Source: Alphaproteobacteria bacterium
GTDB lineage: Bacteria; Pseudomonadota; Alphaproteobacteria; UBA828
Direction of reading: 5' to 3'
Length of the DNA: 64,000 bases
Assembly: GCA_965221125.1 (NCBI GenBank)
Contig: CBDCRW010000007.1
Coordinates: 1 to 64,000, forward strand
The position numbers and the translations under genes were made by a program. Below the pieces are notes generated by a model. The model ran no database searches, had not been told where the DNA came from, and worked only from the letters and a program-made list of their open reading frames with translations. Positions 16,040 through 57,642 of this stretch are shown piece by piece (the first letter of the stretch is position 1; every line of letters starts with the position of its first letter).

Positions 16040-16064
16040 CACAACAACAAGTTCAGAAGTGCGG

Positions 16065-17606
16065 TTACTCGTCGAGGTGTGCACCGAACGCACCGACCAT
16101 ACGACCAACGACGGTATCGACCGTCATGTGGGTCGCCATGAATTGGCCCGTGGCCACTGTGGGCACATTGTTGTCGCCTTCCCCGCGGAGACCGCCCGAC
16201 CACGACCCGTCTACCGCTCCATTGACTCCGCCGATAGTCCAGACCACGGCGTTGGACGCAGTATCGCCAGAATTATCGCTAGTGGTGTTGAACGCGCCCG
16301 TCCCATCAGTAAAGGTCGTCGCGCCGAGCGCAACGCTCCAGTCCATCATCTCACCGCCGGCCATGAAGTTCTCGACCATCCCGGAGATCGTTCCGTTAGC
16401 AGCCTCGTCGCCGAAATCGGCGGTCAAGGTCGCGTCGGCCGTCCAGTGGCCACCGGAGGCGGTGGAGATGCTCGGGTTGATGGCGTACTTGCCGGCCGCC
16501 GAGCCCTTGTAGGTGGCCTTGCCGCCCAGTGGGGTGAAGTTGGTCGCGATGGCCGGCCCCAATGTGGCTTCATCACCGGTGAGGTCCGTCACGCCGTGGA
16601 ACACGCCAGCCTCGACATCATCGGCAGTGCCCTTGTTCAGCCACCAGCCGAAATAGGCGAAGGACGGGTCGACCATCATGGCCATGGCGCCGGAATCAGG
16701 ATCGAAAATCCATGTTGAGCCCTCGAGCCTCACCGCTCCGTCGCCTGCATCGTGGGAGACGCAAGCGTTTGCCGCCGCGGCAGCGCACCGGTACTCGCCG
16801 GCAGCCCCGTTGAAGGTGCCGCGGATCATCACATCGACTGCATCGTCATCCGCACCGGCGTCCGGGGCGTGGTCCTTCTTGCCGGTGTGCATGAAATCCG
16901 ATGCCATAATCTTGGACCGGTTATCCGCAGCGAGAAGTGCGGTGTTGGGCAAGTTCCCGTTACCGTCGAGATCATACACGGTATCGAAGGCAACCGGCTT
17001 CGGCGCCGCGATGTCGGTATAGACAACCACAGTGCTGCTGGTACCGGGATTGGTGGCGGCGTCGGCAGCGTTAGCGTCGGTGAGCATCGTACCCTGCCAC
17101 ATGCCCAGCATCGGCTCCGCGGACTTCATCACATCGTCGCGGCCAACGCCGGGAACCAAGCCGTCGCCCGTGGCCGTGACCCCAGCCATGCCGCCACCGT
17201 GTACGTCGGTAACAGCGTTGGAGGCTGCAATCGTGACCGACAAGGTATCGGTGTCGCCCATGCCGCCGAACAGCGCCATGGCGTCCTTGGCGGCGGCCTC
17301 AGCGGCAGCCTTGTCCTCGGCGTCCTGCGCGTCGTCGATCTGCTTCTGAAGATCGGCCACCTGCTGCGTGAGGTTGGCCACGCTGCCGGTCAGGTCGTCG
17401 ATGTCGATCGGATCCAGCCCAAGTTCCGCCCGCAGGGTATTGATCTGCTCCTGAAGCGCGGCGATCTGCTCGGCCGGTGTCTCCATCTCCATGCCGTCCG
17501 TCGCCGGTGGATCGTCGCTGTCATGGGTGCAGCCGTACATGACGGCAGTCAGTGCGACGATCGAGACCGCCGCCAGCAAGCTGCGAGTCAGCTTCGTCTT
17601 CTTCAT
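16065..17606 (-). CDS. Surface lipoprotein 1 (TbpB-like C-terminal barrel, Slam-substrate type), 513 aa
   Basis: Lipoprotein signal ending AVMYG-C; short coiled coil; FGWWL, ATYKGSAAGKY, LTADFG and terminal GAFGA. Confidence 0.85.
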   Translation of the reverse strand: MKKTKLTRSLLAAVSIVALTAVMYGCTHDSDDPPATDGMEMETPAEQIAALQEQINTLRAELGLDPIDIDDLTGSVANLTQQVADLQKQIDDAQDAEDKAAAEAAAKDAMALFGGMGDTDTLSVTIAASNAVTDVHGGGMAGVTATGDGLVPGVGRDDVMKSAEPMLGMWQGTMLTDANAADAATNPGTSSTVVVYTDIAAPKPVAFDTVYDLDGNGNLPNTALLAADNRSKIMASDFMHTGKKDHAPDAGADDDAVDVMIRGTFNGAAGEYRCAAAAANACVSHDAGDGAVRLEGSTWIFDPDSGAMAMMVDPSFAYFGWWLNKGTADDVEAGVFHGVTDLTGDEATLGPAIATNFTPLGGKATYKGSAAGKYAINPSISTASGGHWTADATLTADFGDEAANGTISGMVENFMAGGEMMDWSVALGATTFTDGTGAFNTTSDNSGDTASNAVVWTIGGVNGAVDGSWSGGLRGEGDNNVPTVATGQFMATHMTVDTVVGRMVGAFGAHLDE

Positions 17607-17613
17607 GGCTTCG

Positions 17614-17693
17614 AGGCTCTCCTTTTCTACAGGTACGTGTAGCGTTTGTTCTAATTCTGACGTCAGAGCTACGCTATGCTACGATTCTGTACG
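17614..17693 (+). promoter_or_regulatory. attL-like site: core plus arm-type repeats
   Basis: Core 17614-17625; GCTACG/GCTACG/TGTACG at 17668, 17678 and 17688 (10-bp period). Confidence 0.7.
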
Positions 17694-17960
17694 TTGTTTC
17701 CGTTAGCTAGGTAGAACCCTCGCTCTTGACGAGACGACAATCCTACGCTCCAATACGCAGGAGTTTGATGTCGCGGGCGTCCGCAGTGATGACGGTAATT
17801 TTGGCCATTCCGACCGATCCCGAATTTTCCCGCCGCGAGGCGGCGGAAGCCCGGAATCCGAACTCGTTCCGTCGTCAGGTGACGGTGAGACGCGGCTGCG
17901 GAATCAGCGACCCGCCGATGACCCCGGCCAGCAGGGCGGCGCGTAATGGGGAGATAGCCG

Positions 17961-19181
17961 ATGCCCAAGCGAAGTGAACTCTCGATCTCCAAGCGCACCG
18001 TCGACATGCTCGCCGTCGAGGGCAAGGACACCACCTTCTGGGACAGGGAGCTGCCCGGCTTCGGTGTCAGGGTCTACCCCTCGGGCAGCAAGATCTACAT
18101 CGTGCAGTCCCGCGGGCCGGTGGGCATCAAGCGCGTGTCCCTCGGACGCCACGGCGACGTCACGCCCGAGCAGGCGCGCAAGAAGGCTTCTGCGGCCATC
18201 ACCCGTATCAAGAAGGGCGAGGACCCGGTGGCGAGGCCCCTCCCTGCGCTCACAGTCGCCCAACTGGCCGAGCGCTATCTGGAGGCCCATGTGATGGTGC
18301 ACTGCAACGCCCACACGCAAGGCATCTACAAGGGCTCGCTCAGGAACCACATCCTGCCGGCGCTGGGCACGCTGCCTCTGGACAAGGTGGGACGTGCCGA
18401 GGTGGCGGCGCTGCACTACGAACTGCGGGAGACGCCGCGTGCCGCGAACCGGGCGCTGATGGTGCTGTCGAAGATGTTCTCGTTGGCCGAGGCGTGGGGT
18501 GTCGGGCCACGAGACGGCAACCCCTGCCGGTTCGTGCAGCGCTACAAGGAGGGACGGCGCGAGCGCTTCCTGACCGAGGACGAGTACCGCAGGGTGGGCG
18601 AGGCGCTGTGCGAGCTTGAGGCCGAGGGCCCGGTGTCGGCGCGGGCTGCGGCGGCGCTGCGGCTTCTGATGCTGACGGGATGCCGGCTGGGGGAGATACA
18701 GACGCTCAGGTGGAGCGACATCGACCGCAAGGCAGGCGAGATTCGCCTGCGCGATGCGAAGACCGGAGCACGCATGGTGCCGCTGACGCCCGCCGTGCTG
18801 GAGGTCCTGGCGGGGATCAAGCGGGTGAGGCGCAGCCCCTGGGTGATCACGGGGAGCAAGCCCAACCGCCACCTGGCGACGCTGACCAGCCACTGGCACC
18901 GGGTGCGCGAGAAGGCAGAGGTCGAGGACGTGCGCATTCATGACCTGCGTCACAGCTTTGCGTCTCGCGCCCTGGCCCTCGGTCTTCAGCTGCCGATGAT
19001 CGGCCGTCTTCTCGGCCACACGGACGTGAGCAGCACGGCGCGGTACGCGCATCTGTCGCAGGAGGCCGAGAAGGTGGCTGCCGCCCGCGTGGGCGGCAGC
19101 ATCGAAGACGACATCCTGCGCATGGAGAGCGCCGCCGCCCATGCCGGCGCCGACGGCATGACGCCGGTCGAGGCGGCGTAG
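17961..19181 (+). CDS. Tyrosine integrase with N-terminal arm-binding (DUF4102-type) domain, 406 aa
   Basis: FWDRELPGFGVRV; LTGCRLGEI; DAKTG; HDLRHSFAS; LLGH; TARYAH. Confidence 0.93.
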   Translation: MPKRSELSISKRTVDMLAVEGKDTTFWDRELPGFGVRVYPSGSKIYIVQSRGPVGIKRVSLGRHGDVTPEQARKKASAAITRIKKGEDPVARPLPALTVAQLAERYLEAHVMVHCNAHTQGIYKGSLRNHILPALGTLPLDKVGRAEVAALHYELRETPRAANRALMVLSKMFSLAEAWGVGPRDGNPCRFVQRYKEGRRERFLTEDEYRRVGEALCELEAEGPVSARAAAALRLLMLTGCRLGEIQTLRWSDIDRKAGEIRLRDAKTGARMVPLTPAVLEVLAGIKRVRRSPWVITGSKPNRHLATLTSHWHRVREKAEVEDVRIHDLRHSFASRALALGLQLPMIGRLLGHTDVSSTARYAHLSQEAEKVAAARVGGSIEDDILRMESAAAHAGADGMTPVEAA

Positions 19182-19192
19182 GAGAACGGGAC

Positions 19193-20362
19193 ATGCCGCG
19201 ACTGAAGAAGAGATCGCTGTCCAACCGGGTGGTCGACGCGTTGACCCCAGAGGACAAGGAGATCATGTGCTGGGACCGGGACCTGCCGGGCTTCGGGGTG
19301 CGGGTCTATCCCAACGGGTCCAAGACCTACGTGGTCCAGCGCAGGGGCCGGCGCGGCTCGAAGCGGATCGCCGTCGGCCGCCACGGCACCCTGTCCGTGG
19401 ACGAGGCCCGCCGGCAGGCGGCCGTGATCCTCACCCGCATGGAGACCGGCGGCGAGCCGGGGGCGAAGCCGGACCCGGACGAAGGGCCGACGGTGGCGGA
19501 GCTGGCGGAGCGCTACCTCCGCGAGCACGTGGCGGTTCACTGCAAGCCGGCCACCGCCCTGGGCTACCGCCGGACGATCGAGCGGAACATCCTGCCGAGG
19601 CTGGGCAAGCTGCCGATCACCGAACTCGACCGCACGCACGTTGCCGAGCTCCAGTATCGCCTGCGCAAGAGGCCGACGGCGGCGAACGACGCCGTTGGCG
19701 CGCTGTCCCGGATGCTGAACCGTGCGCAGGCGTGGGGGCTGCTGCCGGGCGGCAGCAACCCCTGCCGCTTCGTGAAGCCCTACCGGACGCGGCGGCCCGA
19801 GCGCTTCCTGACCGAAGACGAGTTCCGCCGTCTCGGTCAGACCCTGGACGATCTGGAAGCCGAGGGCCGGCTACCCATCCACGTCGCGGCGGCGTTCCGG
19901 CTGCTGACGCTGACGGGGTGCCGGTCGGGCGAGGTGCTGACGCTGCGCTGGAGTGACGTGGCGCTGGAGCGGAACGAGATCAGGTTGGCCGATAGCAAGA
20001 CCGGTCCCCGGATCGTTCCGCTGTCGCCTGCGGCGGCGCGTGTGCTGGCCGGGCTGCCGCGTCTCGCGGGCAACCCCTGGGTGATCGCAGGCCCGGAGCC
20101 GGGCGAGCGGCAGATGCAGCTCACCTATTACTGGTACAAGGTGAGAGAGCACGCCGGTCTCGACGACGTGCGGATTCATGACCTGCGTCACAGCTTCGCG
20201 TCGCGCGCCCTGGCGCTGGGCCATGACCTCACGATGATCGGCAAGCTTCTCGGGCACAGGAAGCTGCAGAGCACCGCGCGGTACGCGCACCTGGCGCGGG
20301 ACTCGGTGAAGGAGTCCGCTGCCCTGGTGGCGGCCAGCATCGCCGCCGATATCATGCCGTGA
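19193..20362 (+). CDS. Second tandem tyrosine integrase, 389 aa
   Basis: Same motif set (LTGCRSGEV, HDLRHSFAS, LLGH, TARYAH); starts 11 nt after the first integrase. Confidence 0.93.
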   Translation: MPRLKKRSLSNRVVDALTPEDKEIMCWDRDLPGFGVRVYPNGSKTYVVQRRGRRGSKRIAVGRHGTLSVDEARRQAAVILTRMETGGEPGAKPDPDEGPTVAELAERYLREHVAVHCKPATALGYRRTIERNILPRLGKLPITELDRTHVAELQYRLRKRPTAANDAVGALSRMLNRAQAWGLLPGGSNPCRFVKPYRTRRPERFLTEDEFRRLGQTLDDLEAEGRLPIHVAAAFRLLTLTGCRSGEVLTLRWSDVALERNEIRLADSKTGPRIVPLSPAAARVLAGLPRLAGNPWVIAGPEPGERQMQLTYYWYKVREHAGLDDVRIHDLRHSFASRALALGHDLTMIGKLLGHRKLQSTARYAHLARDSVKESAALVAASIAADIMP

Positions 20363-20430
20363 GAGTGGCTCGATCCTCCCGCCTGACGATCACCGGCCCG
20401 CCCCGACCATTGGCGTGATGCGGGCGAGAT

Positions 20431-20458
20431 TTGACATGAGTTAGCGCCACACGCTAAT
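20431..20458 (+). promoter_or_regulatory. higBA promoter/operator
   Basis: TTGACA at 20431 followed by palindrome TTAGCG-N5-CGCTAA (20441-20457). Confidence 0.6.
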
Positions 20459-20479
20459 AGCGTGGTGCGGCCATCGGGA

Positions 20480-20761
20480 ATGATCAAGAGCTACAGAAAC
20501 GCCGACACGGAAGCGGTCGCGAGGCGGGAGCGTCTGAGGCGTCTGCCCGCCGACCTTCAGCGGCGCGCACAGGCGAAGCTGATGATGCTGAACAGCGCGA
20601 GGACCCTGAACGATCTGCGTGTGCCTCCGGGGAACCGGCTGGAAGCGCTGTCGGGGGACCGAAGGGGCCAGTACAGCATTCGGATCAACGATCGCTGGCG
20701 GATCTGCTTTTCGTGGAGGCAGGGAGACGCATACGACGTTGAGATGGTGGACTATCACTGA
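20480..20761 (+). CDS. higB: HigB (RelE/ParE family) toxin
   Basis: MIKSY...[33 protein letters not shown]...VDYH. Confidence 0.92.
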
Positions 20762-20796
20762 AGTCGTGACGGGCGCGACGGGAAGGACGCAGGCAG

Positions 20797-21123
20797 ATGG
20801 GAACATCGACACGGAAACAGGGCTGCAAGCTGCGCCCCATCCATCCCGGCGAAATACTCAATGAGGAGTTCCTGGTTCCGCTGAAGCTCACTCAGTATCG
20901 GCTGGCGCGGTCGGTCGGTGTCGACCCCCGCCGCATCCACGCCATCGTGCGCGGCGAGCGCTCCATCTCGGCTGAGACGGCTTTGCTGTTCTCGCGCTTC
21001 TTCGGGAACTCGGCGGAGTTCTGGATGGGTCTGCAAAGCCAGTACGATCTGGAGCGGGAACAGGATCGTCTAGCCGACAGACTTGGGAAGGTGGCGGTGT
21101 ACGGCGCTCGTCCCGTGGCCTGA
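20797..21123 (+). CDS. higA: HigA antitoxin
   Basis: PIHPGEILNEEFL, HTH, FWMGLQSQYDL. Confidence 0.92.
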   Translation: MGTSTRKQGCKLRPIHPGEILNEEFLVPLKLTQYRLARSVGVDPRRIHAIVRGERSISAETALLFSRFFGNSAEFWMGLQSQYDLEREQDRLADRLGKVAVYGARPVA

Positions 21124-21324
21124 GCAATCGGTGGCGGGCTCGGTCGCCGAACGGTGTCTGGAGTGGCGCGGATCGCCGATAATGCTACGCGCCGCCCGCC
21201 CCTCTCCAAGCTGTTCTTCGCCGACGGCGGGGAGGGAGACATTCGAGCCGTGGACACACCCGCGTTCGCCAGGTTTCCATGTGGGCGAGTGAGCCCCACG
21301 ATATAAGACTGCCGAAAGAACGCC

Positions 21325-22203
21325 ATGGGTTCCGTTGCCGACAAGATCGCAAGGAAGATTCTCACGTCCCGCGGCTCGAAGGTCGTCGATCTGGCGGGTT
21401 GGCAGGAGGGCAGGAAGATGGCCCTCGAAGCCGGTTTCGGTGGCGAGGGCCCGGTCCCCGACAAGTTCGCGGACCTTGACCCGTGCCACGGCATCTACGC
21501 GATGGCGGAGAACATCGTCTCCCTCATGGCCGAATCGATTTCCGGGATGAGAGAGGCGAAGGGCTTCGTCAGGATCGTCGGCGACGCCGAGGACGAATAC
21601 CTGCCGTCCGGGCCGCCGATGAGTCCGCTGACCGCCAGCTATTTCACGATGTGGGCGTTCTTCGACGTCCAGTTCGGGAGCAGCCGGGAGACCATGGGCA
21701 ACTGCATCCTGCGGATCGCGCCCGAGTTCGATTGCCCGTCCTGGCTGATCGACGCCATTGAGCGGATGCAGCACTCGAGGATGGGCTTCTACGTCCATTG
21801 CGGCAGCGAGGGCGAGGGGGTCCTGCTGCGCGAGGTCGGCACGCGGGAGATGGTCTCCTGCACGGTTCCCGCCGGCTATGCCGGCCGCGAGGGGGAGGTC
21901 TGGTTCGTGCGTGTGCTTCCACCGCCCAACAGCCTGTGCCGCCGGCATATCGTGTTCAACACGCCCTACGTCTTCCGGGACTGGCCCGAACAAGCCTTTG
22001 TCGACTATCTTGAGCGCGAGCTCGCGCGGATGATGGCAAAGAAGCCGCCCAGGACGGATGACCCGCACGGTCATCTGATGAAGTACGGTCCGGGTCCCAA
22101 CCACTGGAACGAATACGTCTTCTGCGCGTATGTCGGTCATCGGCACGAGGCGATCTTTCTGACCGGCATCCCGGACATGCGGCAGAGTCTTCCCCATGCC
22201 TAG
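21325..22203 (+). CDS. Hypothetical protein, 292 aa
   Basis: Strong coding bias and globular composition; no family recognised. Confidence 0.75.
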   Translation: MGSVADKIARKILTSRGSKVVDLAGWQEGRKMALEAGFGGEGPVPDKFADLDPCHGIYAMAENIVSLMAESISGMREAKGFVRIVGDAEDEYLPSGPPMSPLTASYFTMWAFFDVQFGSSRETMGNCILRIAPEFDCPSWLIDAIERMQHSRMGFYVHCGSEGEGVLLREVGTREMVSCTVPAGYAGREGEVWFVRVLPPPNSLCRRHIVFNTPYVFRDWPEQAFVDYLERELARMMAKKPPRTDDPHGHLMKYGPGPNHWNEYVFCAYVGHRHEAIFLTGIPDMRQSLPHA

Positions 22204-22267
22204 ACCGATCCGTAGTCCAGCCATCAGGTATCGACAGCAAGTTTGGGTGCGCATCGGGAAGGCCTTT

Positions 22268-22434
22268 GCGCGCCCTGGCGCTGGGCCATGACCTCACGAT
22301 GATCGGCAAGCTTCTCGGGCACAGGAAGCTGCAGAGCACCGCGCGGTACGCGCACCTGGCGCGGGACTCGGTGAAGGAGTCAGCGGCGCTGGTGGCGGCC
22401 AGCATCGCCGCCGATATCATGCCGTGAGAGTGGC
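22268..22434 (+). pseudogene. Duplicated 3' end of integrase 2 (direct repeat of 20203-20369)
   Basis: 167-bp near-identical copy encoding RALALGHDLTMIGKLLGH...ADIMP*, with 3 synonymous differences seen. Confidence 0.88.
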
Positions 22435-24331
22435 CGGACCGACCGTCAAGGCCGCATCGGCATCGACGAGGGATAACTGGCCGGTGGTCCGTATCGCCGA
22501 TGACTGGACTCCTACGCTGGCGAAGGGGCTCGCCGCGCTGAACAACCGCGACCTCACGGTCATGGTGAACTGGCTCTCGGTGCCGAAGCCGCGGCCCACG
22601 CGCAAGGCCGACATGATCGCGGCCATCGAGGGCCGTCTCAGCGGGGCCTCGCTTGGCCTCCTGTGGGACGGTCTCGACGAGGTTCAACGACTGGCGGTGG
22701 GCGAGGCGCTGCACGATGCCGAGGGCTTCGATGCCGCGCGGTTCGAGGCCAAGTACGACGCTTTTCCTGCGGGCTTCGACGGGATCGGCGCCCCCGGTGC
22801 ATTGCCCTTACGCCTCTTTCTTCATTTCCGCGGCGGTCACGTGGGCTCGGCACCGTTCATCCCGCCCGATCTGGCGGAGCGCCTGCGTGCGTTCGTGCCC
22901 GCGCCACCCGAGGCGACGCTCGCTGGCGAGGACGAGCTGCCGGAGGCGATAGACCGGCGACGGCGCGGCTACGTGCCCAAGGGAGAAGAGCCGACATTCG
23001 ACCGCGTCGCGCTGGTTCGGCGCGACATGGAGCGCGCGGCGCAGAGGGACCTGGTCGCCGTGCTGCGCCTGATCGATCTCGGCCGGGTTGCGGTGAGCGC
23101 GAAGACGCGGCGGGCCTCGGCGGCCTCGGCGGCGGCCATCGCCGGGGAGCTGGATGGGGGCGACTTCTACGACCTTGCCGAGAAGCGGGAGAGCTGGGAG
23201 CAGGCGGTCGGCCCCATCAAGGCGCACGCCTGGCCGTGGCTGGTGCAGGCGGGCAAGCTGGCCGAGCTCAGGGGCTCGAAGCTGGCGCTGACGAAGAAGG
23301 GCCATGCAGCGCTGGGCGCGCCAGCAGCGGAGACGTTGCGCCACCTCTGGCAACGCTGGATCAGGAACGACCTGCTCGACGAGTTCAGCCGCATCGACGC
23401 CATCAAGGGCCAGAGCCGCGGCAAGGGCAAGCGCGCGCTGACTGCGGTCTCGACGCGCCGCCCGGTGGTGGCCGAGGCGCTGGAGCAATGTCCGTTGGGC
23501 CGCTGGGTACGCTTCGACGAGTTCTCGCGCTTCATGCAGGCGGCGTCCTTCGATTTCGGTATCACGCGCGATCCGTGGAAGCTCTACCTCTTCGATTCTC
23601 ACTACGACAGCCTTGGCTATGACGGTTGTCACGGCTGGAACATCCTGCAGGGCCGCTATCTTCTGTGCGTGTTGTTCGAGTACGCCGCGACGCTGGGCCT
23701 GATCGACGTCGCCTACATCCACCCCAAGGGAGCGCGGGTGGATTTCACGGGGCTGCCGGGGAGCGACGAGCTGGCCTGGCTCAGCCGCTATGACGGGCTG
23801 CAGTATTTCCGACTGAACGCGCTCGGCGCCTACTGTCTGGGGCTCGCCGATACGTACGAGCCGGGCGCGTTTCTGGAGCGCACGTCCCTGACGGTCTTTC
23901 CCGACCTGAGGGTGTGCGCCGGCGGGGCATTGTCGGCGGACGAGAGGCTGATGCTGGAGACGTTCGCGGAGGCCGAGGCGGAGGGCGTCTGGCGCCTGGC
24001 GCGCGACAGGACGCTGGCGGCCTTCGAGAGCGGGCACGATGGCGACGGCCTGCGCGCTTTTCTGGCGGCACGGGACGAGCAGCCCCTGCCCGAGAGGGTC
24101 GAGGGCTTCCTGCGCAACGTCGAGCGCGGCGCGGATGCGCTCAAGGCGCGCGGCACGGCGCTGTTGATCGAGTGCGTCGACGAAGATGTTGCGGCGAGAA
24201 TTGCGGGCGACGAGCGCCTGGCGAAGCTCTGCCTGCGCGCGGGGAAAAAGCACCTGGTGGTCCAGACGAGGGCCGAGGCGGCGTTCCGCAAGGCCGTTCG
24301 CGACCTCGGCTTCGGCATTCGCAGTGCATGA
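22424..24331 (+). CDS. Helicase-associated (XPB/Helicase_C_3-like) domain protein; true start probably slightly downstream
   Basis: C-terminal VWRLARDRTLAAFESG..LRAFL...PLPERVEGFL; no Walker motifs. Confidence 0.65.
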   Translation: MRVAGPTVKAASASTRDNWPVVRIADDWTPTLAKGLAALNNRDLTVMVNWLSVPKPRPTRKADMIAAIEGRLSGASLGLLWDGLDEVQRLAVGEALHDAEGFDAARFEAKYDAFPAGFDGIGAPGALPLRLFLHFRGGHVGSAPFIPPDLAERLRAFVPAPPEATLAGEDELPEAIDRRRRGYVPKGEEPTFDRVALVRRDMERAAQRDLVAVLRLIDLGRVAVSAKTRRASAASAAAIAGELDGGDFYDLAEKRESWEQAVGPIKAHAWPWLVQAGKLAELRGSKLALTKKGHAALGAPAAETLRHLWQRWIRNDLLDEFSRIDAIKGQSRGKGKRALTAVSTRRPVVAEALEQCPLGRWVRFDEFSRFMQAASFDFGITRDPWKLYLFDSHYDSLGYDGCHGWNILQGRYLLCVLFEYAATLGLIDVAYIHPKGARVDFTGLPGSDELAWLSRYDGLQYFRLNALGAYCLGLADTYEPGAFLERTSLTVFPDLRVCAGGALSADERLMLETFAEAEAEGVWRLARDRTLAAFESGHDGDGLRAFLAARDEQPLPERVEGFLRNVERGADALKARGTALLIECVDEDVAARIAGDERLAKLCLRAGKKHLVVQTRAEAAFRKAVRDLGFGIRSA

Positions 24332-24578
24332 GCGGCGGATCGGTGTCCTCATTCTGCGCGCCGGTGGCCGACGCCATCGGCACCCATGCCGGGCCTGAAC
24401 AGATCGGCCGGAGGGAAGCTCGGTGATGCGGTGTCGCCTCTGCGCCGGCACCGGTAAGATCGTCCTGCTCGCCGCGCTGATGGCCGGAATGGGAGCGAGA
24501 ATATGACCGGCTCCGCTCAACGCGGCGTGAGGCGGTGTCGAGCCCTCGCCAGGTCCAGCGAGGGGACGGCGGCTCGCG

Positions 24579-25646
24579 TTAGTCTGCGTTCTCCAGCCGC
24601 GCGATCAGCTCGTCGCCCGTGGCGCAGTCGATGATCCACTCGCCGACGTCGGTCAGCCGCCCCGGCTCCCCGATCCCGGCCAACAGTGCGGCGGCGCGCT
24701 CGGCGATGTCATCGCCGAACTTCCGCTCGGTGAGGCGCCGCAACAGCAGGCGTTCATGTTCGACGCCCTCGGCGCGGCCCAACTCGACGCCCTCGGCACG
24801 ACCCTTCTCGACGCCCTCGGCGCGGCCCTGCTCACGGTCGGCTTCACGCCACGCGCGAACACGGTCCTGGACCGGCGTCCGCATCTCTCCTTCTTCAGGA
24901 ATCCGTTCCATCTCCTCGAACTCCTCGATCAAAGCGCCTGCGGCGCCCTGCCCGGCAAGCAAAGTGAACCAGTCATAAAGCGTCCGGCGCAACTGCCGGT
25001 GCTCGGCGCCGCGAAGGGCGGAGAACGCCTCACGCAGCGTCGCGTATCCCTCACTATACGACGACATCCGCTCGATGCCGACCACAAGTGAGAGCACGTC
25101 GACTGGTGCGGAATCTCCGGCTTCAACCCGGCCAACGTCAAGCGTCACGTAGCCCGAGCCGGCATACGTCGGCACGGAGGCGATGCGACTTGGGGGACGG
25201 GCCTCCGGTGCAACCAGCTCCTCGACGCTCGCCGCAGCCGTCCACGGAGACTTCCCGTTGTACAGCACCACGGGGAGCACCGGCGGCAGACGGTCGGACG
25301 CGCCGAAGCGGCGATCCGCCCAGAGCCCGCGATAGAGCAGGTCCACGTAGGTCCGAACCCGCAGCGCCATCAGGTGGTCCACCGCAGACTGGAACTCGAT
25401 CAGCACGAAGAGGTAGGCCCAATCGTCCTCGCCGCCGTCGCGCAGGCGCACGCGCCAGATCAGGTCGCTCAGGTGGCGGTGCAGGGTCTCGTCGATGCGC
25501 TCGGTGGGCACCGGCTCCAGGGTCTCGGGGTCGAAGGCCGCGATCCACGCCGGGCCGTCGTCGATCATGCCCTCGACGAAGCGGAGCAGGTGCTCGACGG
25601 AAATCCTGTGGGAGAAGATCGACTTGTAGCACTCGTCGTAGCGCAT
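24579..25646 (-). CDS. Rpn-family (YhgA-like/Transposase_31) PD-(D/E)XK nuclease, copy 1
   Basis: D..YKSIFSH, SDLIWRV, LIEFQS, LPPVLPVVLYNG, C-terminal GRAEGVE repeats. Confidence 0.88.
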   Translation of the reverse strand: MRYDECYKSIFSHRISVEHLLRFVEGMIDDGPAWIAAFDPETLEPVPTERIDETLHRHLSDLIWRVRLRDGGEDDWAYLFVLIEFQSAVDHLMALRVRTYVDLLYRGLWADRRFGASDRLPPVLPVVLYNGKSPWTAAASVEELVAPEARPPSRIASVPTYAGSGYVTLDVGRVEAGDSAPVDVLSLVVGIERMSSYSEGYATLREAFSALRGAEHRQLRRTLYDWFTLLAGQGAAGALIEEFEEMERIPEEGEMRTPVQDRVRAWREADREQGRAEGVEKGRAEGVELGRAEGVEHERLLLRRLTERKFGDDIAERAAALLAGIGEPGRLTDVGEWIIDCATGDELIARLENAD

Positions 25647-29046: not shown

Positions 29047-29107
29047 AGCAATCATCAGGTTCGAGGCTTTTCGATGAAAACCTGATCCTCTGCTTCAAGA
29101 CTACTTT

Positions 29108-29138: not shown

Positions 29139-29155
29139 CCGTTCGCCGACCACCA

Positions 29156-43518: not shown

Positions 43519-43519
43519 G

Positions 43520-48291: not shown

Positions 48292-48427
48292 CGAAAGTTT
48301 ACGCTCTTGCCTTGTTCCGGCTTACCTAGAATTGCGACTCCAAACGTGTCAATCATGAAATTCAACAAAAAATGAAAGCCCGCAAGGTGTTACCCCTGCG
48401 AGCTTTACATTTCTACCTAACTTCCCC

Positions 48428-48877
48428 TTAGAATGGGAACGGCTGGCCCGAATTTTCGCCGTTCGCGGCCGCCGGCGCGTCCTCACCGTTGGCCGGCGCG
48501 GCGCCGTTGCCGTTGGTGCCGGCAGGCTTGTCCAAAAGCTGCACGCGCCCACCGGGAACGAGCAGGATCTCGGTCGAAAACCGATCCGAGTCCTCGCCGT
48601 CCTTGCGCCACTTCCTGGTCTGCATCTTGCCCGAGACGTAGATCAGCCGGCCCTTCTTCGCGTGCTTCGCCAGCATATCGATCAGCCCGTCCTGGAAGGT
48701 GACGACGCGATGCCACTCTGTCTTGTCGATCCGCTCGCCGCCTGCACGCCTGTCGATGTACGACTCGTCGGTGGCGATGCTCATGTTGGCGACGCGCCCG
48801 CCGGAGGCGAGGCTGTTGATGGTGACGTCCGCACCCAGGCGGCCAATGACTTCTGCGCGGTTCAGTCCGAAACTCAT
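48428..48877 (-). CDS. ssb: SSB paralog 1 (repeat copy 2)
   Basis: Identical translation to 366-815. Confidence 0.92.
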   Translation of the reverse strand: MSFGLNRAEVIGRLGADVTINSLASGGRVANMSIATDESYIDRRAGGERIDKTEWHRVVTFQDGLIDMLAKHAKKGRLIYVSGKMQTRKWRKDGEDSDRFSTEILLVPGGRVQLLDKPAGTNGNGAAPANGEDAPAAANGENSGQPFPF

Positions 48878-49123
48878 CTTCGTGCTCCTTCACGTGCGAG
48901 TTCTGACGATGGTTGACGAACGGATCGGACCGCTCTCTCGCGACCTCCTCCGTTCACCCTCCTTCAAGCTCTCCCTTCCCTCTCGCCTGCGGCCTGATCC
49001 GGCGGTGGCCGGCTTCCCGAGGGCCCCGCGGACCGCACGGCCGCCGCGGCGCCGACGCCGATCCTGGATCGGGAAGTTGCCGAACGACCTGGCCCACGGC
49101 ATCTGTCTGGGGCAAGGCCGCAC

Positions 49124-49930
49124 TCATGCCGGCGGCAGCGCCATCAGCGGCACGTTGGAGAGGAACTCGACCTGGTCGGGCCGCAGCTTGGCGAAGGCGA
49201 GGCAGGCGGCGGCTTCGGCCTCAGTCTCGAAGGTCCCCAGCTCCCGCGAGGTCTGCAGCTCGATCACGGTGATCTGCGGCGGCCAGAGCGCCGCCAGGTG
49301 ACGCTCGGGCGCGCGGGAGTTGGACCGATATGCGCAGTGCTCACAGCGGGCCGCACCACCGGTGCGGACTCCACAATCCACACACGCGCCCCGCGCGCGC
49401 CTCGCGGCATAGCGTCTCTTCCCGACGGCGCTCCTTTGCTCGGGGGAGACGCGCTCCTTCTCCAGCGTGAGGCAGCGGCCGCAGCGCGACAGGCCCCCGA
49501 CCGTGGGCTGCGTGCAGCGTACGCAGCGGCCGACAGCGCGCCGCGCGTCATAGCGCCGGCGGTCGCGTGCGCGCCGTGTCTCGCGGCATGGCTCGCAGAC
49601 GGAGCGGCCCTCCTCCGGCCGACGGCGGCCGCAGGATGTACACAGCCCTGCCTCCTTCCACGCCCTCCGCCGCCGCCTGTCGCCGGCGCGGTCGGCTCTG
49701 CGGCAGCGCTCCGGATCGCGGCCGCCGTACTGCTTGCCCTCAGCGCGGGCCTTGGCCCGGCGGGCGCGGTCGGCGGCGCGGCGTTTCTCGGCACAGCCGG
49801 TGCACATCTTGAGGCCAGGCTCGGAAGGAAGCCGACCGCAGCGGGTGCACCGGCCGCTGGCGATGCGCGCGGCGTGGCGCTGGCGGAGGCGTCGATCCCG
49901 CGCCTTCTTCACCGGGTCCTTGAGCGGCAT
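49124..49930 (-). CDS. Arg-rich protein with four paired-CxxC repeats, 268 aa (its 3' end also appears at 1-119 on +)
   Basis: CTRC..CTGC, CTSC..CEPC, CVRC..CGRC and CVDC..CEHC repeats. Confidence 0.65.
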   Translation of the reverse strand: MPLKDPVKKARDRRLRQRHAARIASGRCTRCGRLPSEPGLKMCTGCAEKRRAADRARRAKARAEGKQYGGRDPERCRRADRAGDRRRRRAWKEAGLCTSCGRRRPEEGRSVCEPCRETRRARDRRRYDARRAVGRCVRCTQPTVGGLSRCGRCLTLEKERVSPEQRSAVGKRRYAARRARGACVDCGVRTGGAARCEHCAYRSNSRAPERHLAALWPPQITVIELQTSRELGTFETEAEAAACLAFAKLRPDQVEFLSNVPLMALPPA

Positions 49931-49945
49931 GGCCGGCCACCCCTG

Positions 49946-50269
49946 TCAGCGCGCGTAGCGGGTGGTCAGCAAGCCTGTGGCTTGGGTCCCCCACATCTGC
50001 ACGCCGGAGCGAGCCAGCTTGACCCCCGTGCAGACGATGATTTCGTTGGGCGCAGGCCGCATCTCCCGGACCGCTTTGCGCGAAACGATCTTCCTGCGCG
50101 GCTTGCCCCGGCCCTTCGTCCTGGGCCGCTCCGCCTGGACAGGCTCGATCTCGCCGTTGGGATGGGAGCGGTACTTCTCGACCACGTAGCGCTCGTCGTC
50201 GAGGCCTCTGCCGAACAGGTGCACCAGAAAGGTCTGCGCGTCGCGATGGAATATTCGGTCGGTCCGCAT
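49946..50269 (-). CDS. Hypothetical protein, 107 aa
   Basis: SD GGGGAGG before ATG 50269; collinear with the downstream gene. Confidence 0.5.
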   Translation of the reverse strand: MRTDRIFHRDAQTFLVHLFGRGLDDERYVVEKYRSHPNGEIEPVQAERPRTKGRGKPRRKIVSRKAVREMRPAPNEIIVCTGVKLARSGVQMWGTQATGLLTTRYAR

Positions 50270-50619
50270 CTTGCCGCCTCCCCCGGTGAAGGTTGCCGAC
50301 GGCGAGGACACGCTCCGCAGCGCCGCCCCCGCCGCCCCGGTTCCGGCCGGGCTCTCGCTCATGGCGACGTGCCGGCGGCGGAGGGGCGGGCGGCGCGCTG
50401 GGGTGGCGGAAGCCCCCGTTTCATCGTCCGGGGACGCTGGAGGCGGGGGAAGAGGCGTGGGCCGGTGATAGCTGCAGATCGTGCGCTGGGCCACGGTGCT
50501 GGAAGAGATGTTCGCCGAGGACGAGCGCAACGCCGCCGGGGAAGGCCGCCAGGACCCCGGTTGCAGGTCCCGTCGTCCGCGCGGCAGCGCACGGACGGCG
50601 GGCAACGCCCGGCGGAGGG

Positions 50620-53881
<3,262 letters not shown>

Positions 53882-54171
53882 ACCCTGGAAACGGGGTCAG
53901 CCGCGACTATGCGGCGCCACGTATGGGCAAAGGACCACACGGCATGCGGTTCTTATGGTCGAGCCGAACGCACCACGCCTTCGGCGCGCAGCGCAGGCGC
54001 AGATCGCACAGCCGCGAAGGTCGCCTACGGCAGGCGCGCTGCCGATCCATGTCTCGGCCCATGGCGCTCGATCACCGCTGGGGCCGGGGAAACGCACGTG
54101 CCCCGACACTGGTCCCCTGGTCCCCCGCATGCACGGTGCTGCCGGCAGGCGCGTCCCCGCCGGCAAGATAC

Positions 54172-55221
54172 TCACGGCTCGGTCCATCCCGCCCGGTGCC
54201 TGGCCGCGCCGCCGAAGAAGGCGAGGCACGCCCGCGCCAGCGATCTCTGCCTCCCCTCCTCCGTGAGCACGGCAAGGAAGCTCCTGCCAGTCTCGACGAA
54301 GCCGCCCGCCTGCATCACCAGAGTGTCGGCCTCCACATGCCGTCCAATCAGATGACGCCAGCCGAGCACGAGGCCGCGGCCGGCAACGGCCGCTTCAAGC
54401 GCCTGGGCATGACTCTCGACGACTTCGTACCGGGGGGCCGGGGCCGGACGACCCACGGCCTCGAACCAGCGCTCCCAGGACGCTCCGCTCTCGCCAGGCC
54501 CCGCGAGATCGAGAAGGGTCAGACCGTCCCAGCCCGCCGCAGGTCCGTCCAGAACCTGGGCATGGGCGGCGGCGTAGCCGGGAGAGCAGAAGGCGCCAAC
54601 GGCTCCCCTGGCAACCGTCACGCAGTGCCTGGGTGCGGCAGTCTCCGCGTCCCAGGTGAGCATGATGTCGGCGGCGGGCTCGGACGGCGCCGGCGCTGCT
54701 GCGTTTGTGTGGGCGAGGATGCGGATTCGGACGTCATCTCCAAGCGCAGCTTTCAGCGCCTCATAGCGCTGCATCGCGAAGAGATGGGACAACTCGCCCG
54801 GACAGGCGATCGCTACCTCCGTCCCGTCCTCGCCGGAGTGTTCCGCAATCTCCGCAGCCCCGCCATGGAGAGCGTCGAGAGCCAGAAGGACGGCCTTGTG
54901 AAAGCGAAGCCCCGCATCGGTCAGACTCACCCCGATCCGGGAGCGCTCGAACAGCCGTGCCGAGAGCTGGCCCTCCAGTCGCGCAATGAGGCGGCTGATC
55001 GCCGACTGCGAGGTGCCGAGCTCACGCGCCGCAAGGGAGAAGCTGCCGTGCCGTACCGCGCTCTCGAAGGCGATCAGGGCGCTCATCGACGGAACACTGT
55101 AAGGACTGCGATCGCTCAAGGGCGCGCGGGCGCGGCCAGAGCGCACGTTCCCGTCCTCGCGCTGCTCCACATGGCGCGGCTCTCCGCTCCTGGCCATGCA
55201 TCCCTCCCCGGCACGTATCAC
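54172..55221 (-). CDS. LysR-family regulator (GcvA-like); start uncertain, probably downstream
   Basis: ALIAFESAVRHGSFSLAARELGTSQSAISR...LE; LFER. Confidence 0.85.
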   Translation of the reverse strand: MIRAGEGCMARSGEPRHVEQREDGNVRSGRARAPLSDRSPYSVPSMSALIAFESAVRHGSFSLAARELGTSQSAISRLIARLEGQLSARLFERSRIGVSLTDAGLRFHKAVLLALDALHGGAAEIAEHSGEDGTEVAIACPGELSHLFAMQRYEALKAALGDDVRIRILAHTNAAAPAPSEPAADIMLTWDAETAAPRHCVTVARGAVGAFCSPGYAAAHAQVLDGPAAGWDGLTLLDLAGPGESGASWERWFEAVGRPAPAPRYEVVESHAQALEAAVAGRGLVLGWRHLIGRHVEADTLVMQAGGFVETGRSFLAVLTEEGRQRSLARACLAFFGGAARHRAGWTEP

Positions 55222-55283
55222 CGCGTGAGCCCGGTCTCCGCAGCCGCCAGGCGCTCAGGCCGCGAGAACCCCGCCGGGCCGCC

Positions 55284-55730
55284 TCACTCCGCCTGGGCCA
55301 GCGCCACGCGCTTCGTCAGCGTCACCACGTTGCGCCCGTCCTGCCGCCGGTAAGCCAACGTATCCATCGTCTTGTGCACGAGATAGATGCCGAGACCGCC
55401 CTTGGCGCGCTCGTCGAGCGAGGCTCCTAGGTCCGGCGCTGGCGCCTGCGAAGAGTCGAACACCGTGCCGTCGTCTGCGATCTCGACCGCCAGCGCTCCG
55501 CCCTCAAGGTGGAGGACGAGCTTGATCCGATGCTCCCCATCGTCGTCGTAGCCGTAGCTGATCGTATTGGTCAGAAGCTTGTCGACCGCCAGATTGACCT
55601 CAAAGGCAATCTCTGTCGCCAGCCCATGCCTCGCGCAGAACGCGTCGATGTTCTCGGCGGCGATGGCGATATTCCGCAGATCGCTGACCAGCGAGAGCTC
55701 GAGAACGTCGTCGGTACCGGCCGCAGTCAT
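55284..55730 (-). CDS. RsbW-like anti-sigma/HATPase_c_2 protein
   Basis: LLTNTISYG, IADDG, GGLGIYLV and GRN boxes. Confidence 0.85.
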   Translation of the reverse strand: MTAAGTDDVLELSLVSDLRNIAIAAENIDAFCARHGLATEIAFEVNLAVDKLLTNTISYGYDDDGEHRIKLVLHLEGGALAVEIADDGTVFDSSQAPAPDLGASLDERAKGGLGIYLVHKTMDTLAYRRQDGRNVVTLTKRVALAQAE

Positions 55731-55793
55731 TTGCCGAACGCCCCACGCCCGCCCCGTGCAGCACGCGTCCGCCGCTTGCGTCTCCGGCGGCCG

Positions 55794-56069
55794 CTACGGC
55801 TTGGCGGGCTCGATAATGATGCGGCCGCGGCCACGTCTGAGAAGATAGCCGCCGCGCGGGATAGCCAGCGTGCCCTGCTGCACAAGCGGCCAGAGCGTGT
55901 CGACGATCAGGGTTGCACTCTCGTCCGGCGCCGACCCCGCAGCCGCCGGCTGCGCGGAAAGCCACTCCGCGAAGGCGCGTTCTGCGATATCGTCGCCGAT
56001 AGACTTGCGCAACGCATCGAGTTTTCTGCGTTGCCCCTTCGTTAGAACGGATTCGTCGATTGCGGACAT
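55794..56069 (-). CDS. Hypothetical protein, 91 aa
   Basis: SD AAGGAG before ATG 56069; protein-like sequence. Confidence 0.65.
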   Translation of the reverse strand: MSAIDESVLTKGQRRKLDALRKSIGDDIAERAFAEWLSAQPAAAGSAPDESATLIVDTLWPLVQQGTLAIPRGGYLLRRGRGRIIIEPAKP

Positions 56070-56191
56070 CCGAAATTGCTCCTTCGAAGGCTGAAATGCC
56101 GACGGCGCTATATAGCAGTTACAGGGAACAGTGCGAACCCGAGCGATCTGCCGGACCGGTCGGGTCGACATGCCCCGCCTGCGTAACGCGT

Positions 56192-56515
56192 CTACACCGC
56201 GTCAGGCACCTCAGCTCGAGGGTCGAGATCGGCTCGCGTCGGCAGAAGACGGATCGTATCGCCCCTCTCGTTGTCGGCGTAGACGAGATCGTAATGTGCC
56301 TGAAGATTGAGCCAGAACTCCGGCTCGACACTGAACCAGTGTCCGAAGCGAAGCGCCGTGTCGCCGGTGATCGAGCGCCTGCCGTTGATAATCTGGCTGA
56401 CCCGGTTGGCCGGCACATCGATCTGGCGCGCGAACTCCGTCGGTGTGATGCCGACTTCCGCAAGCTCTTCCTTCAATATCCGGCCGGGATGGACGCTGCG
56501 TCTCAGCACGGGCAC
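56192..56515 (-). CDS. higA: HigA antitoxin (second pair)
   Basis: VHPGRILKEEL, HTH, FWLNLQAHYDL; GTG start inferred. Confidence 0.9.
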   Translation of the reverse strand: MPVLRRSVHPGRILKEELAEVGITPTEFARQIDVPANRVSQIINGRRSITGDTALRFGHWFSVEPEFWLNLQAHYDLVYADNERGDTIRLLPTRADLDPRAEVPDAV

Positions 56516-56522
56516 TCCCCTC

Positions 56523-56810
56523 TCACGAGTGATAGTCCACCATCTCGACATTGCTCGGACCCGACTGACCCTCCGGCCACTCGAAACAGACGCGCCACTG
56601 TCGGTTGACGCGAATGGAATACTGTCCCTTCCGGTCTCCCCCCAGGGCCTCCAACCGATTGCTCGGCAAGTTTCTCAGTGTGCCAAGCGACGGTGCGGCG
56701 TTCAGGATCGCGAGACGTCTGACCGCTTGTTGCTCAAAGCCCCGGAACTCCCGCACCGCTCGGCCGCTGGCGAATCTCTCCGTCTTCTTGTCCCTGTAGC
56801 CGAGGATCAT
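56523..56810 (-). CDS. higB: HigB toxin (second pair)
   Basis: PSNRLEALGGDRKGQYSIRVNRQWRVCF...VDYH. Confidence 0.9.
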   Translation of the reverse strand: MILGYRDKKTERFASGRAVREFRGFEQQAVRRLAILNAAPSLGTLRNLPSNRLEALGGDRKGQYSIRVNRQWRVCFEWPEGQSGPSNVEMVDYHS

Positions 56811-57196
56811 CAACAGACAACATAGCCCGATGACGATGTACGTCAAGCGTAGTTGGCGGCAATGACGCTCCGGACTGGAGACGCCGAGAGGCTTCAAAGG
56901 GGCCGGCCGTATCTGGCTGCAGCGGCCGCGCGGACCTGCGGGTGTTGAACGCCACGGTTATGGCGCTCATGCTGTCGCCGCCGAAGTCTGAAACCATGCA
57001 GGCGGCCGTGGCCGTGTCGGCGACCACGACGGGTTCTGCCTCAGCCGGTCAGGCGAGTACCGGACGCACTCGGCGGAGACCGTCACCGGCCTGCGCCGCC
57101 CCGCCGACGGGATCGAAAATCGCCTCCCGGCGGGCCTATTTGATTCCGGTTTCGGGGGCGACGGCGACGGGCTCGCGCAGCGTTTCGGCCCGAGTC

Positions 57197-57367
57197 GCTA
57201 CGGGTCGCTACGCAGGGCTACGCTGGAGTTGGAATTCACTCGCTTCCGGAGTGATTACGGCGGGCGGTTTCAGGGTCAGTCGGAAAGGGCTGATTCGAGA
57301 GCTAAGCGGCTGTATCGATTTAGAGAACCGAGGGTGTAGCTTCTGTCCTACGTCCAGGCTCTCCTTT
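57197..57367 (+). promoter_or_regulatory. attR-like site: arm-type repeats plus core
   Basis: GCTACG at 57197, 57207 and 57217 (10-bp period); core 57356-57367. Confidence 0.7.
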
Positions 57368-57642
57368 GCATCTAGGAGGCCTCGGCCGAGGCCTCGCTGG
57401 GTTCAACAAGTCGGCCGTCAACGTACCTGACGACTCGGCAACTGTCCATAGCCCTTAAACTTCACCACACCGGCGCCCGCTTGTCTACATCGCAAAAGCG
57501 GCCATGAGCCATGAAGCGATCCCAAGCCGTCATGGGGACTCCGCCCCTTGTCGCTGCTGCCTCCCTGCACATCCGCAGACCTCCTTGCGTCACGCGCGAT
57601 GTGCTGAGCCGAATTCTCGCCACAATTCCGCGCCCTTTGCAA
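57356..57642 (-). promoter_or_regulatory. Orphaned promoter, leader and SD of lipoprotein 1
   Basis: Homologous to 26279-26594 including TTGCAA-N18-GAGAAT; homology stops exactly after AAAGGAGAGCCT and no start codon follows. Confidence 0.75.

Follow-up and report, generated by a model that had tools for sequence, protein, structure and literature searches.

The lambda/P4 paradigm of site-specific integration combines arm-type sites with a recombination of attP and attB that gives attL and attR. Multiple-inversion systems act on surface proteins in the R64 shufflon, in the vsa/HvsR system of Mycoplasma pulmonis and in sap of Campylobacter fetus. In Streptococcus pyogenes, the SpyCI islands integrate at the 5′ end of mutL, and measurements of both their excision and the restored transcription are reported (PMC4689407; PMC3430984). 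Nested integration has been described for Tn1806 inside integrative and conjugative elements (ICEs) of the ICESa2603 family (PMC12942858) and for integrative and mobilisable elements (IMEs) inside ICEs of S. suis (PMC7168690). The tripartite ICEs of Mesorhizobium are reported to include the conjugative ICE3, which uses three different integrases, each with its own att site (PMC5882170). Here we describe an island of 39,730 bp, island 1 (17626-57355), in the first 64 kb of contig C7 (CBDCRW010000007.1) of an alphaproteobacterial genome of 4.58 Mb in 7 contigs (GCA_965221125.1); this 64,000-nucleotide stretch is called the window throughout. The interval is very probably an integrated island of a tyrosine-integrase family whose core lies in the 5′ untranslated region (UTR) of lipoprotein genes linked to Slam (surface lipoprotein assembly modifier) genes, and which nests within itself.

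The operons and leaders on which the argument turns are the following.

14519-16108, minus strand: Slam 1 (PF04575, E 9e-23).
16065-17606, minus strand: lipoprotein 1, an intact open reading frame (ORF) of 513 aa with the lipobox signal peptide MKKTKLTRSLLAAVSIVALTAVMYGC.
26265-26585, plus strand: leader P2, which contains two GAGGCCTC palindromes and forms the upstream half of island 1's internal target (leader comparison).
26602-29046, plus strand: lipoprotein 2, cargo of island 1 (signal peptide).
29156-30607, plus strand: Slam 2, cargo of island 1 (PF04575, E 4e-17).
57368-57660, minus strand: leader P3, an orphan that makes up the upstream half of the internal target in a second, outer island (leader comparison).

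In these operons, a gene for a signal peptide with a lipobox cysteine stands beside a PF04575 gene on the same strand, as in a Slam-dependent lipoprotein operon, and surface display of the products is predicted. All five lipoproteins of this kind in the genome have a common signal peptide (MKKTKLTRSL...C) and a C-terminus of the G(A/G)FGA type. The Atlas clusters nearest to lipoprotein 1 carry TbpB_B_D with scores of 0.86-0.88, which is a lead only.

The first-pass annotation of this DNA had reported a 12-mer direct repeat at the two ends of the interval, and this was borne out: the window holds just two copies of AGGCTCTCCTTT, at 17614-17625 and 57356-57367, each on the plus strand, with no copies expected from 100 dinucleotide-preserving shuffles. 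The crossover core consists of GGAGAGCCT plus 1-3 nt, sits in the 5′ UTR and overlaps a GGAG resembling a Shine-Dalgarno (SD) sequence; the left core, read on the minus strand, stops 7 nt upstream of the ATG of lipoprotein 1 (17606). The proposal that the outer flanks together rebuild a leader and gene start of the lipoprotein 2 type also held. Positions 17529-17628, at the 5′ end of lipoprotein 1, and 26580-26679, at the start of lipoprotein 2, show 90% complementarity; between the orphan leader (57388-57488) and the lipoprotein 2 leader (26462-26562) the figure is 88%, and a leader block of 44 nt (26496-26539, plus strand; 57411-57454, minus strand) matches with 0 mismatches. Lipoprotein 2, which had served as the intact comparison, is itself cargo of island 1, and the interrupted operon belongs to the second island copy. 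That lipoprotein 2 and Slam 2 lie within the island interval, that an arm of a large inverted repeat lies there as well and that the window is the start of a contig go beyond the earlier description.

Sites are denoted here as upstream/downstream in the polarity of the core, where P is a leader, defined by one or two GAGGCCTC palindromes, G a gene, N the arm adjacent to the first integrase gene (IntA) and Z the outer end of a 22-kb arm. When the genome was searched for the 9-mer GGAGAGCCT together with its family context, seven family sites came to light, on C7 and on two further contigs, C4 and C5.

S1, C7:17622 (core 17614-17625), minus strand: N/lipoprotein 1, left junction of island 1.
S2, C7:26586 (core GGAGAGCCT, 26586-26594), plus strand: P/lipoprotein 2, unoccupied internal target.
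S3, C7:57364 (core 57356-57367), minus strand: P/Z, right junction of island 1.
S4, C7:65642, plus strand: N/lipoprotein 3.
S5, C7:70719, minus strand: P/lipoprotein 4.
S6, C5:8818, minus strand: P/lipoprotein 5.
S7, C4:10784, minus strand: P/Z.

The sites fall into two N/G (S1, S4), three P/G (S2, S5, S6) and two P/Z (S3, S7) junctions, and none of the seven is N/Z. The junctions of the second island, S4 and S7, have 11 nt in common. The first 10,785 nt of C4 (C4:1-10785) equal window 46581-57365 with 0 mismatches; the match breaks off within the 12-mer, and C4 continues with another leader. One Z end is thus joined to two different leaders at the same core.

The same junctions recur in relatives. 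Of 20 other genomes searched in the genus, 15 hold the block of core and signal peptide (~95 nt) in many copies, and many of the matches start exactly at the core. The loci fetched from relatives held 23 distinct sites: eight N/G and one more with a variant N, seven P/G, and four P/Z with three more of a variant Z, N/Z being found at none of the 23. Occupancy of a given leader changes between species. The P3 leader (55/55 nt) is P/Z here and P/G in three other species (G018:C8, G015:C89 and G005:C3), where the lipoprotein that follows it is not an orthologue of lipoprotein 1 beyond the signal peptide. Conversely, the P2 leader is P/G here and P/Z in G018:C9, G015:C18 and G015:C14. Such exchanges could also have come about by homologous recombination or gene conversion among the paralogous lipoprotein 5′ ends, with no integrase acting at a defined core. 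Part of the evidence suits that explanation: the multicopy ~95-nt block provides homology in most of the genomes searched, and at otherwise orthologous loci the lipoproteins part company close to where the signal peptide ends and differ in their mature parts, so exchange does occur downstream of the core. At the junctions themselves, by contrast, gene and Z flanks, like leader and N flanks, have only the 9-12-nt core in common, which is too short for RecA-type recombination, and the breakpoint falls within the same few bases at all P/Z and N/G sites of several species. We consider this explanation highly unlikely.

The candidate attachment arms and the integrase genes of the window are as follows.

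17626-17960, unstranded: N arm, the integrase-proximal att arm, with GCTACAC at -18 and CGTAGC at -58 and -48 from the core, 10 nt apart.
17961-19181, plus strand: IntA1, a P4-type tyrosine integrase of 406 aa (Arm-DNA-bind_3 and Phage_integrase).
19193-20362, plus strand: IntB1, a paralogous integrase of 389 aa, 54% identical to IntA1 (Arm-DNA-bind_3 and Phage_integrase).
22266-22427, plus strand: C-terminal remnant of an IntB, 52-53 aa (22268-22434 is 98% identical to 20203-20369).
56898-57355, unstranded: Z arm, the distal att arm, with GCTACAC at +16 and CGTAGC at +134, +144 and +154 from the core, 10 nt apart.
62817-63977, minus strand: IntB2, integrase of the outer island, inside the window.

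GCTACAC stands beside the core in both N arms (S1, S4) and in the Z arm, accompanied by two or three CGTAG(C/G) repeats at a phase of 10 nt; N4, the arm at S4, has the same GCTACAC and three phased CGTAG(C/G). Phased repeats of the CGTAGC type were found in none of the five leader (P) regions examined, and the genome-wide density of the hexamer CGTAGC is 0.88 per kb. The Z arm is identical in C4 up to the core, and the N arm is 92-95% conserved in G018:C9, G015:C86 and G015:C7. By their sequence, N and Z resemble the paired arms of an attP. The integrase genes do abut the left repeat, as had been proposed. The count of three was corrected: two full genes (17961-19181 and 19193-20362) are intact and the third is the remnant. 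IntA1 and IntB1 both retain the catalytic R, K, HxxR, H and Y, which are invariant across all seven aligned family members. IntA2, the partner of IntB2, lies directly past the end of the window (C7:64032-65258). From these features we infer that IntA and IntB would catalyse the exchange at the core and that their arm domains would bind N and Z; constantly paired as they are, the two may form a heteromeric integrase. Tandem IntA-IntB pairs of the P4 type were also noted at six loci of the genome (C7:17961-20359, 62850-65252 and 71004-72922; C5:9079-11459; C4:11790-14187 and 213530-215947), together with more distant tandem integrase pairs at C7:305711-307954, C4:444538-446798, C2:4465-6788, C3:9169-11378 and C6:236283-238523. 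The second gene of the pair at C7:71004-72922, the IntB of the S5 island, is split by an insertion of ~4.4 kb (C7:72254-72940 and 77381-78070).

The earlier proposal of a site-specific insertion in the 5′ UTR, which leaves the ORF intact and the family-type leader 39.7 kb away, is upheld because the same Z end joins a different leader on C4 at the same core, because the P3 leader joins a lipoprotein gene directly in three other species and because N and Z carry phased repeats that the leaders do not. In the mechanism that we propose, a P/G target acting as attB would recombine with the joined island ends N/Z acting as attP, yielding N/G and P/Z.

A second line of evidence comes from the inverted repeat of the window, whose two arms (1-13750 and 32678-49242) differ by 3 mismatches in 13.75 kb.

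1-13750, unstranded: left arm, cargo of the outer island (element 2), with ssb, a 9-kb trio-like element, a Toprim/DUF7146 primase-like gene and a YspA-SLOG gene.
32678-56897, unstranded: right arm, cargo of island 1 (sequence self-comparison, Pfam).
37017-39818, plus strand: IS21-family insertion of 2.8 kb with IstA- and IstB-like genes, present in the right arm only.

The start of C7 overlaps the start of C4 head to head, C4:1-2662 being the reverse complement of window 1-2662. Most simply, C4 joins the start of C7; this join is based on the sequence overlap and on the exclusion of the other contig ends, and a contiguous homologue in G018:C9 supports it. If C4 joins C7 in this way, each arm of the inverted repeat is probably ~21.9 kb long and ends exactly at a core. 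Along the reverse complement of C4 followed by C7, the core polarities alternate: S7(+), S1(-), S2(+), S3(-), S4(+), S5(-). When P/Z(+)...N/G(+) and N/G(-)...P/Z(-) are read as brackets, the order becomes S7( S1[ S2 ]S3 )S4. Island 1 runs from the N arm through IntA, IntB, accessory genes and an Rpn-like gene to P2/lipoprotein 2, and on through Slam 2, DUF3187 and ~22 kb of cargo to the Z arm. Island 2 is laid out in the same way: N, IntA2 and IntB2 (C7:62817-65258), an Rpn-like gene, P3/lipoprotein 1, Slam 1, the arm and Z. It begins with N at C7:65641 and runs back to 57368, resumes at 17613, reaches position 1 and probably goes on into C4 up to the Z end at C4:10784. As part of the same joint explanation, we hold with good confidence that island 1 sits in the internal target (P3/lipoprotein 1, Slam 1) of an inverted second copy of the island, which itself sits in P7/lipoprotein 3. 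This nesting would explain the giant inverted repeat. Island 1 in turn holds a full copy of the target that it uses (26586-26594), unoccupied and of opposite polarity. Identity between the two islands is 80-87% in their cassette and Slam parts, and they are near-identical over the ~22 kb of cargo, including the same 9-kb insertion; near-identity runs from the core to just past a terminator-like hairpin at 13750/32678.

The nested order was found again in G004, a complete genome in a single contig. Its seven sites, at 1532214(+) P/Z, 1559823(-) N/G, 1567794(+) P/Z, 1584370(-) P/G, 1596779(+) N/G, 1617309(-) P/Z and 1621024(+) P′/G, form matched alternating brackets, ( [ ( target ) ] ), corresponding to three nested islands with IntA-IntB beside each N end and a Slam gene downstream of each G end. 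In the outermost of them, the arm that adjoins IntA is P-like.

These data also bear on a shufflon-like inversion model, which was favoured at first as an invertible-promoter cassette and was dropped after the junction census and the bracket test in G004. In this model, 9-kb IntA-IntB cassettes (17626-26585 and 57368-65641), bounded by inverted cores, flip a single outward leader between lipoprotein 1 and lipoprotein 2. The alternation of core polarity along C4 and C7 is what it would lead one to expect. Moreover, a lipoprotein-Slam operon stands on either side of the cassette, the two being divergent and forming an inverted repeat over their first 100 nt, and the orthologous e cassette in G018:C8 is placed in the same way. 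The 9-kb cassettes (N-IntA-IntB-...-Rpn-P) have 95% identity in G018 and G015 and are much better conserved than their flanks. A flip next to a Z end would, on the other hand, yield N/Z, which was seen at 0 of the 23 sites of relatives and 0 of the 7 sites here. An exact-pattern scan of one genome for each of 185,579 species likewise returned 0 N/Z against 7 P/Z. The sites of G004 are properly nested, as insertions predict, and the phased repeats are confined to N and Z. No segment was found in both orientations between the same flanks in the Logan contigs, the loci of relatives or G004, and the Logan contigs held no strand-changing joint, although such contigs drop rare variants. An inversion of this kind is very unlikely to account for the locus.

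An inverted repeat at the start of a contig also raises the question of whether it and the junctions are chimeric products of the assembly. The contig ends invite the suspicion: C4 and C7 overlap head to head, C5:1-6811 equals C7:82394-89204 at 100% identity (a contig-end overlap of 6.8 kb), and many reads are shorter than the arms. Breaks in the assembly fall at the island repeats, around which it is partly redundant, with contig ends that match other contigs at 100%. Yet the arms differ by an insertion sequence (IS) and 3 substitutions, N/G and P/Z junctions with 92-96% identical flanks occur in the independent assemblies G018 and G015, and the same nested architecture stands in the single contig of G004. 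The N/G junction at lipoprotein 1 is furthermore bridged by a Logan contig, X2 (543 nt; 17594-18136, 0 differences), which may come from the source sample. Logan contigs, the only form in which reads were searched, came from four sequencing runs of one sample that hold 82-93% of the words of the window. An artefact of assembly is hardly credible in the light of these observations. The runs that partly contain window sequence are sponge and marine metagenomes.

Several observations weigh against the reading of nested, integrase-borne islands. The outer island depends on the C4-C7 join, made through an overlap of 2,662 nt that lies partly inside a five-copy repeat. The near-identity of the cargo needs an extra event, either a recent conversion or an exchange between the inverted arms. 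The leaders of S5, S6 and S7 stand directly beside other IntA-IntB pairs, and the partner Z ends of S5 and S6 were not found in this genome; by analogy with the G004 site at 1621024, we read the S5 and S6 leaders as N-equivalent arms of a subfamily. No excisionase was recognised by Pfam among the listed ORFs or in a screen of small ORFs with high third-position GC (GC3), several ORFs being without a family, and neither an excised circle nor an N/Z junction was seen in the loci of relatives, the 185,579-species scan or the metagenome collection, all of them assemblies or contigs, in which rare forms are not kept. Finally, an N/G junction stands ahead of the Slam 1 orthologue in G015:C86 too, a sign of an old and stable junction, so that this insertion may have become fixed long ago.

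As to expression, the first-pass annotation had proposed a candidate switch under the control of excision. In its active form, the island would excise and reintegrate at appreciable frequency, with lipoprotein 1 and Slam 1 silent while it is integrated and expressed from P3 after excision. This functional claim can be added to the nested-island explanation and does not compete with it. On insertion, the N arm would have taken the place of the P leader in this operon, and P3 would have come to stand ahead of the Z-end genes, higBA among others. The geometry fits an excisable switch of the SpyCI, skin or comK-prophage type: the ORF is whole, as are the SD-like core and Slam 1, a family-type leader waits at the other junction, both integrases are intact and the occupancy of orthologous targets varies between species whose cassettes are 95% identical. 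A precedent is SpyCIM1 at mutL, where an island at a gene 5′ end is reported to block transcription (PMC4689407). The ratios of non-synonymous to synonymous substitution (dN/dS) are 0.23 for Slam 1 against its G015:C86 orthologue, which also lies behind an N arm, 0.31 for lipoprotein 1 against lipoprotein 3, both behind N arms, and 0.26 for IntA1 against IntA2. The genes behind N arms are thus maintained by selection, with values like that of the integrase. Purifying selection fits an at least part-time use of lipoprotein 1 and Slam 1 and speaks against their lasting silence; a promoter in N would explain it equally well. That the leader holds the promoter did not find support either, since a promoter and terminator scan, which covers promoters of the sigma-70 type, found no sigma-70-like site on the relevant strands of N, P2 or P3 with Z; N may itself carry a promoter. 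No RNA run was listed among the sequencing runs that contain window sequence. As to active excision, N/Z was absent from every collection searched, including a metagenome collection in which only one N/G of the island family occurs, so that this particular blank is uninformative. The Logan contigs of the four runs, searched over 13001-33000, gave no informative excised or inverted joint and no S1-S2 joint; as such contigs drop rare variants, this speaks neither for nor against excision or inversion. Joints with sides of 20-35 nt in these contigs were treated as spurious and are unrelated to the cores. The first-pass annotation had named, as an observation that would refute it, relatives with the sequence from 17626 onwards as the native upstream region of lipoprotein 1. 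Relatives do have this sequence upstream of lipoprotein genes; these occurrences are read as further N/gene sites of the island family and not as a native promoter region. Together with the lack of a recognised excisionase, the long residence indicated by G015:C86, the two secondary insertions in the island (the IS21 element and the 9-kb trio-like element) and a toxin-antitoxin pair at each island end, these results make frequent switching doubtful, and the excision switch stands as a reasonable hypothesis.

Leader RNAs may add a further layer. In the P leader RNA, the second GAGGCCTC can pair with the core and the SD sequence in predicted hairpin regions at 26555-26600 and 57345-57400 (minus strand), with hairpin z values of -2.7 for P2 and -4.9 for P3/Z, and no comparable fold was predicted for the N/G leader (z +0.7). 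The pairing of GAGGCCTC with the core could equally be an inverted repeat at the level of DNA. A more speculative extension, which we regard as rather improbable, is that the islands form a last-in-first-out stack for the replacement of surface antigens. Each incoming island would cut the resident operon off from its leader and bring in its own lipoprotein-Slam pair, with an equivalent leader that could be targeted in turn; silenced operons would build up as a nested archive and be re-exposed in reverse order by successive excisions, with a heteromeric IntA-IntB at work and with the pairing of GAGGCCTC with core and SD in the P leader adding a translational control that N lacks.

The remaining cargo of the window and of its neighbourhood is listed below.

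20462-21123, plus strand: a HigB-like toxin (20462-20761) and a helix-turn-helix (HTH) antitoxin-like gene (20797-21123) (Pfam).
22424-24331, plus strand: a protein of 635 aa with a Helicase_C_3 domain (Pfam).
24579-25646, minus strand: a YhgA/Rpn-like (Transposase_31) gene adjoining the internal leader (Pfam).
31000-32271, plus strand: a DUF3187 protein (Pfam).
50620-51522: LysR, right-arm cargo.
51467-53881: catalase-peroxidase, right-arm cargo.
54172-55221: a second LysR, right-arm cargo.
55284-55730: RsbW-like kinase, right-arm cargo.
56192-56897, minus strand: HigA and HigB, right-arm cargo.
57906-59995, minus strand: IS4-like insertion with a DDE transposase that has a DruA-like N-terminus, 11 other copies in the genome.
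60314-61378, plus strand: a YhgA/Rpn-like gene in the cassette of the outer island, paralogue of 24579-25646.

HigB-type toxin-antitoxin pairs are thereby present near both ends of island 1. The two YhgA/Rpn-like genes have 80% amino acid identity, and the gene is kept beside the internal leader, also in the cassettes of G004 and G005. The IS at 57906-59995 is 2.09 kb long, encodes a transposase of 595 aa (DruA-like and DDE_Tnp_1), has its 11 further copies at 99.6-100% identity and is absent from the orthologous cassette in G018 and G015. Slam 3 (C7:79403-80947, minus strand) is followed by a 350-aa gene that is 82% paralogous, at the nucleotide level, to window 61550-62572. At the locus L031 (G015:C86, 893-3706), compared with window 15867-17515, N arm and signal peptide are 94% identical and Slam 1 is 92% identical, and the mature lipoprotein is without nucleotide similarity. 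The comparison suggests that the mature domain of the lipoprotein is replaced in the manner of a cassette, the breakpoint lying where the conserved signal-peptide block ends.

The element of ~9 kb in the arms is present in at least five copies with 98.7-100% identity (window 281-9656 and 39822-48962; C2:27821-37166; C4:642530-651777; C5:57110-65960). It contains tyrosine-recombinase ORFs in a row, two of them clear and one weak (952-2196, 2189-3676 and 3261-5723), a RecD2/TraI-type helicase (6677-8656) and ssb paralogues on both sides (366-815 and 8853-9380), and was not found in the orthologous arm of G018:C9. We take it to resemble an active element of the recombinase-in-trio type. Pfam searches of the listed ORFs recognised no type IV secretion genes and no relaxase, so the island is not classed as an ICE. 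Weak signals of a conjugative type came from a NikA-like match below the cut-off (E 2e-4) and from the RecD2/TraI-type helicase inside the 9-kb insertion. A megablast search of a plasmid database with the 9-kb cassette found no match. Scans of the window returned 0 tRNAs and no Rfam match, so no known family of RNA genes supplies the target.

In the literature searched, no work was found that joins the surface lipoprotein assembly modulator with an integrase or that describes such islands. If our reading is true, it adds a family of mobile islands specialised on the 5′ UTR of Slam-linked lipoprotein genes in an alphaproteobacterial genus. It would also provide a mechanical rule for the origin of large inverted repeats and of 100-kb clusters of lipoprotein, Slam and integrase genes, as nesting can repeat itself whenever an island brings along the very site that it targets. 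Horizontal transfer could then replace, and perhaps reversibly mask, surface proteins along with their dedicated exporter, and the paired IntA-IntB might be a heteromeric integrase system of biochemical interest.

Islands with P4-type integrases are close in plan to the island described here: their integrase genes lie at one end, both junctions bear the same short core in direct orientation, each arm has phased repeats, and related genomes hold empty as well as occupied targets. They differ in that the target here is the 5′ UTR of multicopy lipoprotein genes and not a tRNA gene, that two paralogous integrases are always paired, that no excisionase was recognised and that a second, functional-looking copy of the target is carried in inverted polarity. 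The surface-protein inversion systems (R64 shufflon, vsa, sap) are alike in the conserved 5′ end across variable surface-protein genes, in sites of alternating orientation and in recombinase genes within the locus, whereas the N/Z junction that free inversion is expected to generate was never seen here and the pattern fits insertions. As for SpyCI, reported as a proposed reversible switch, an island at the 5′ end of a gene likewise separates that gene and those downstream from upstream transcription. Excision and restored transcription were measured there, whereas for our island both are hypothetical, and it brings with it a replacement operon of the same kind as the interrupted one. The tripartite ICEs of Mesorhizobium are also alphaproteobacterial, with interleaved att sites that depend on integrases and a gene order that results from successive recombinations. 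A single common core, the same IntA-IntB pair in every island and the lack of any conjugation gene found set the present family apart. The nested ICEs, IMEs and Tn1806 likewise place a site-specific element in a defined site inside another element. Here, by contrast, host and guest are of the same family, and the site inside the host copies the chromosomal target of that family, so that nesting is recursive, with two levels in this genome and three in G004, and produces large inverted repeats.

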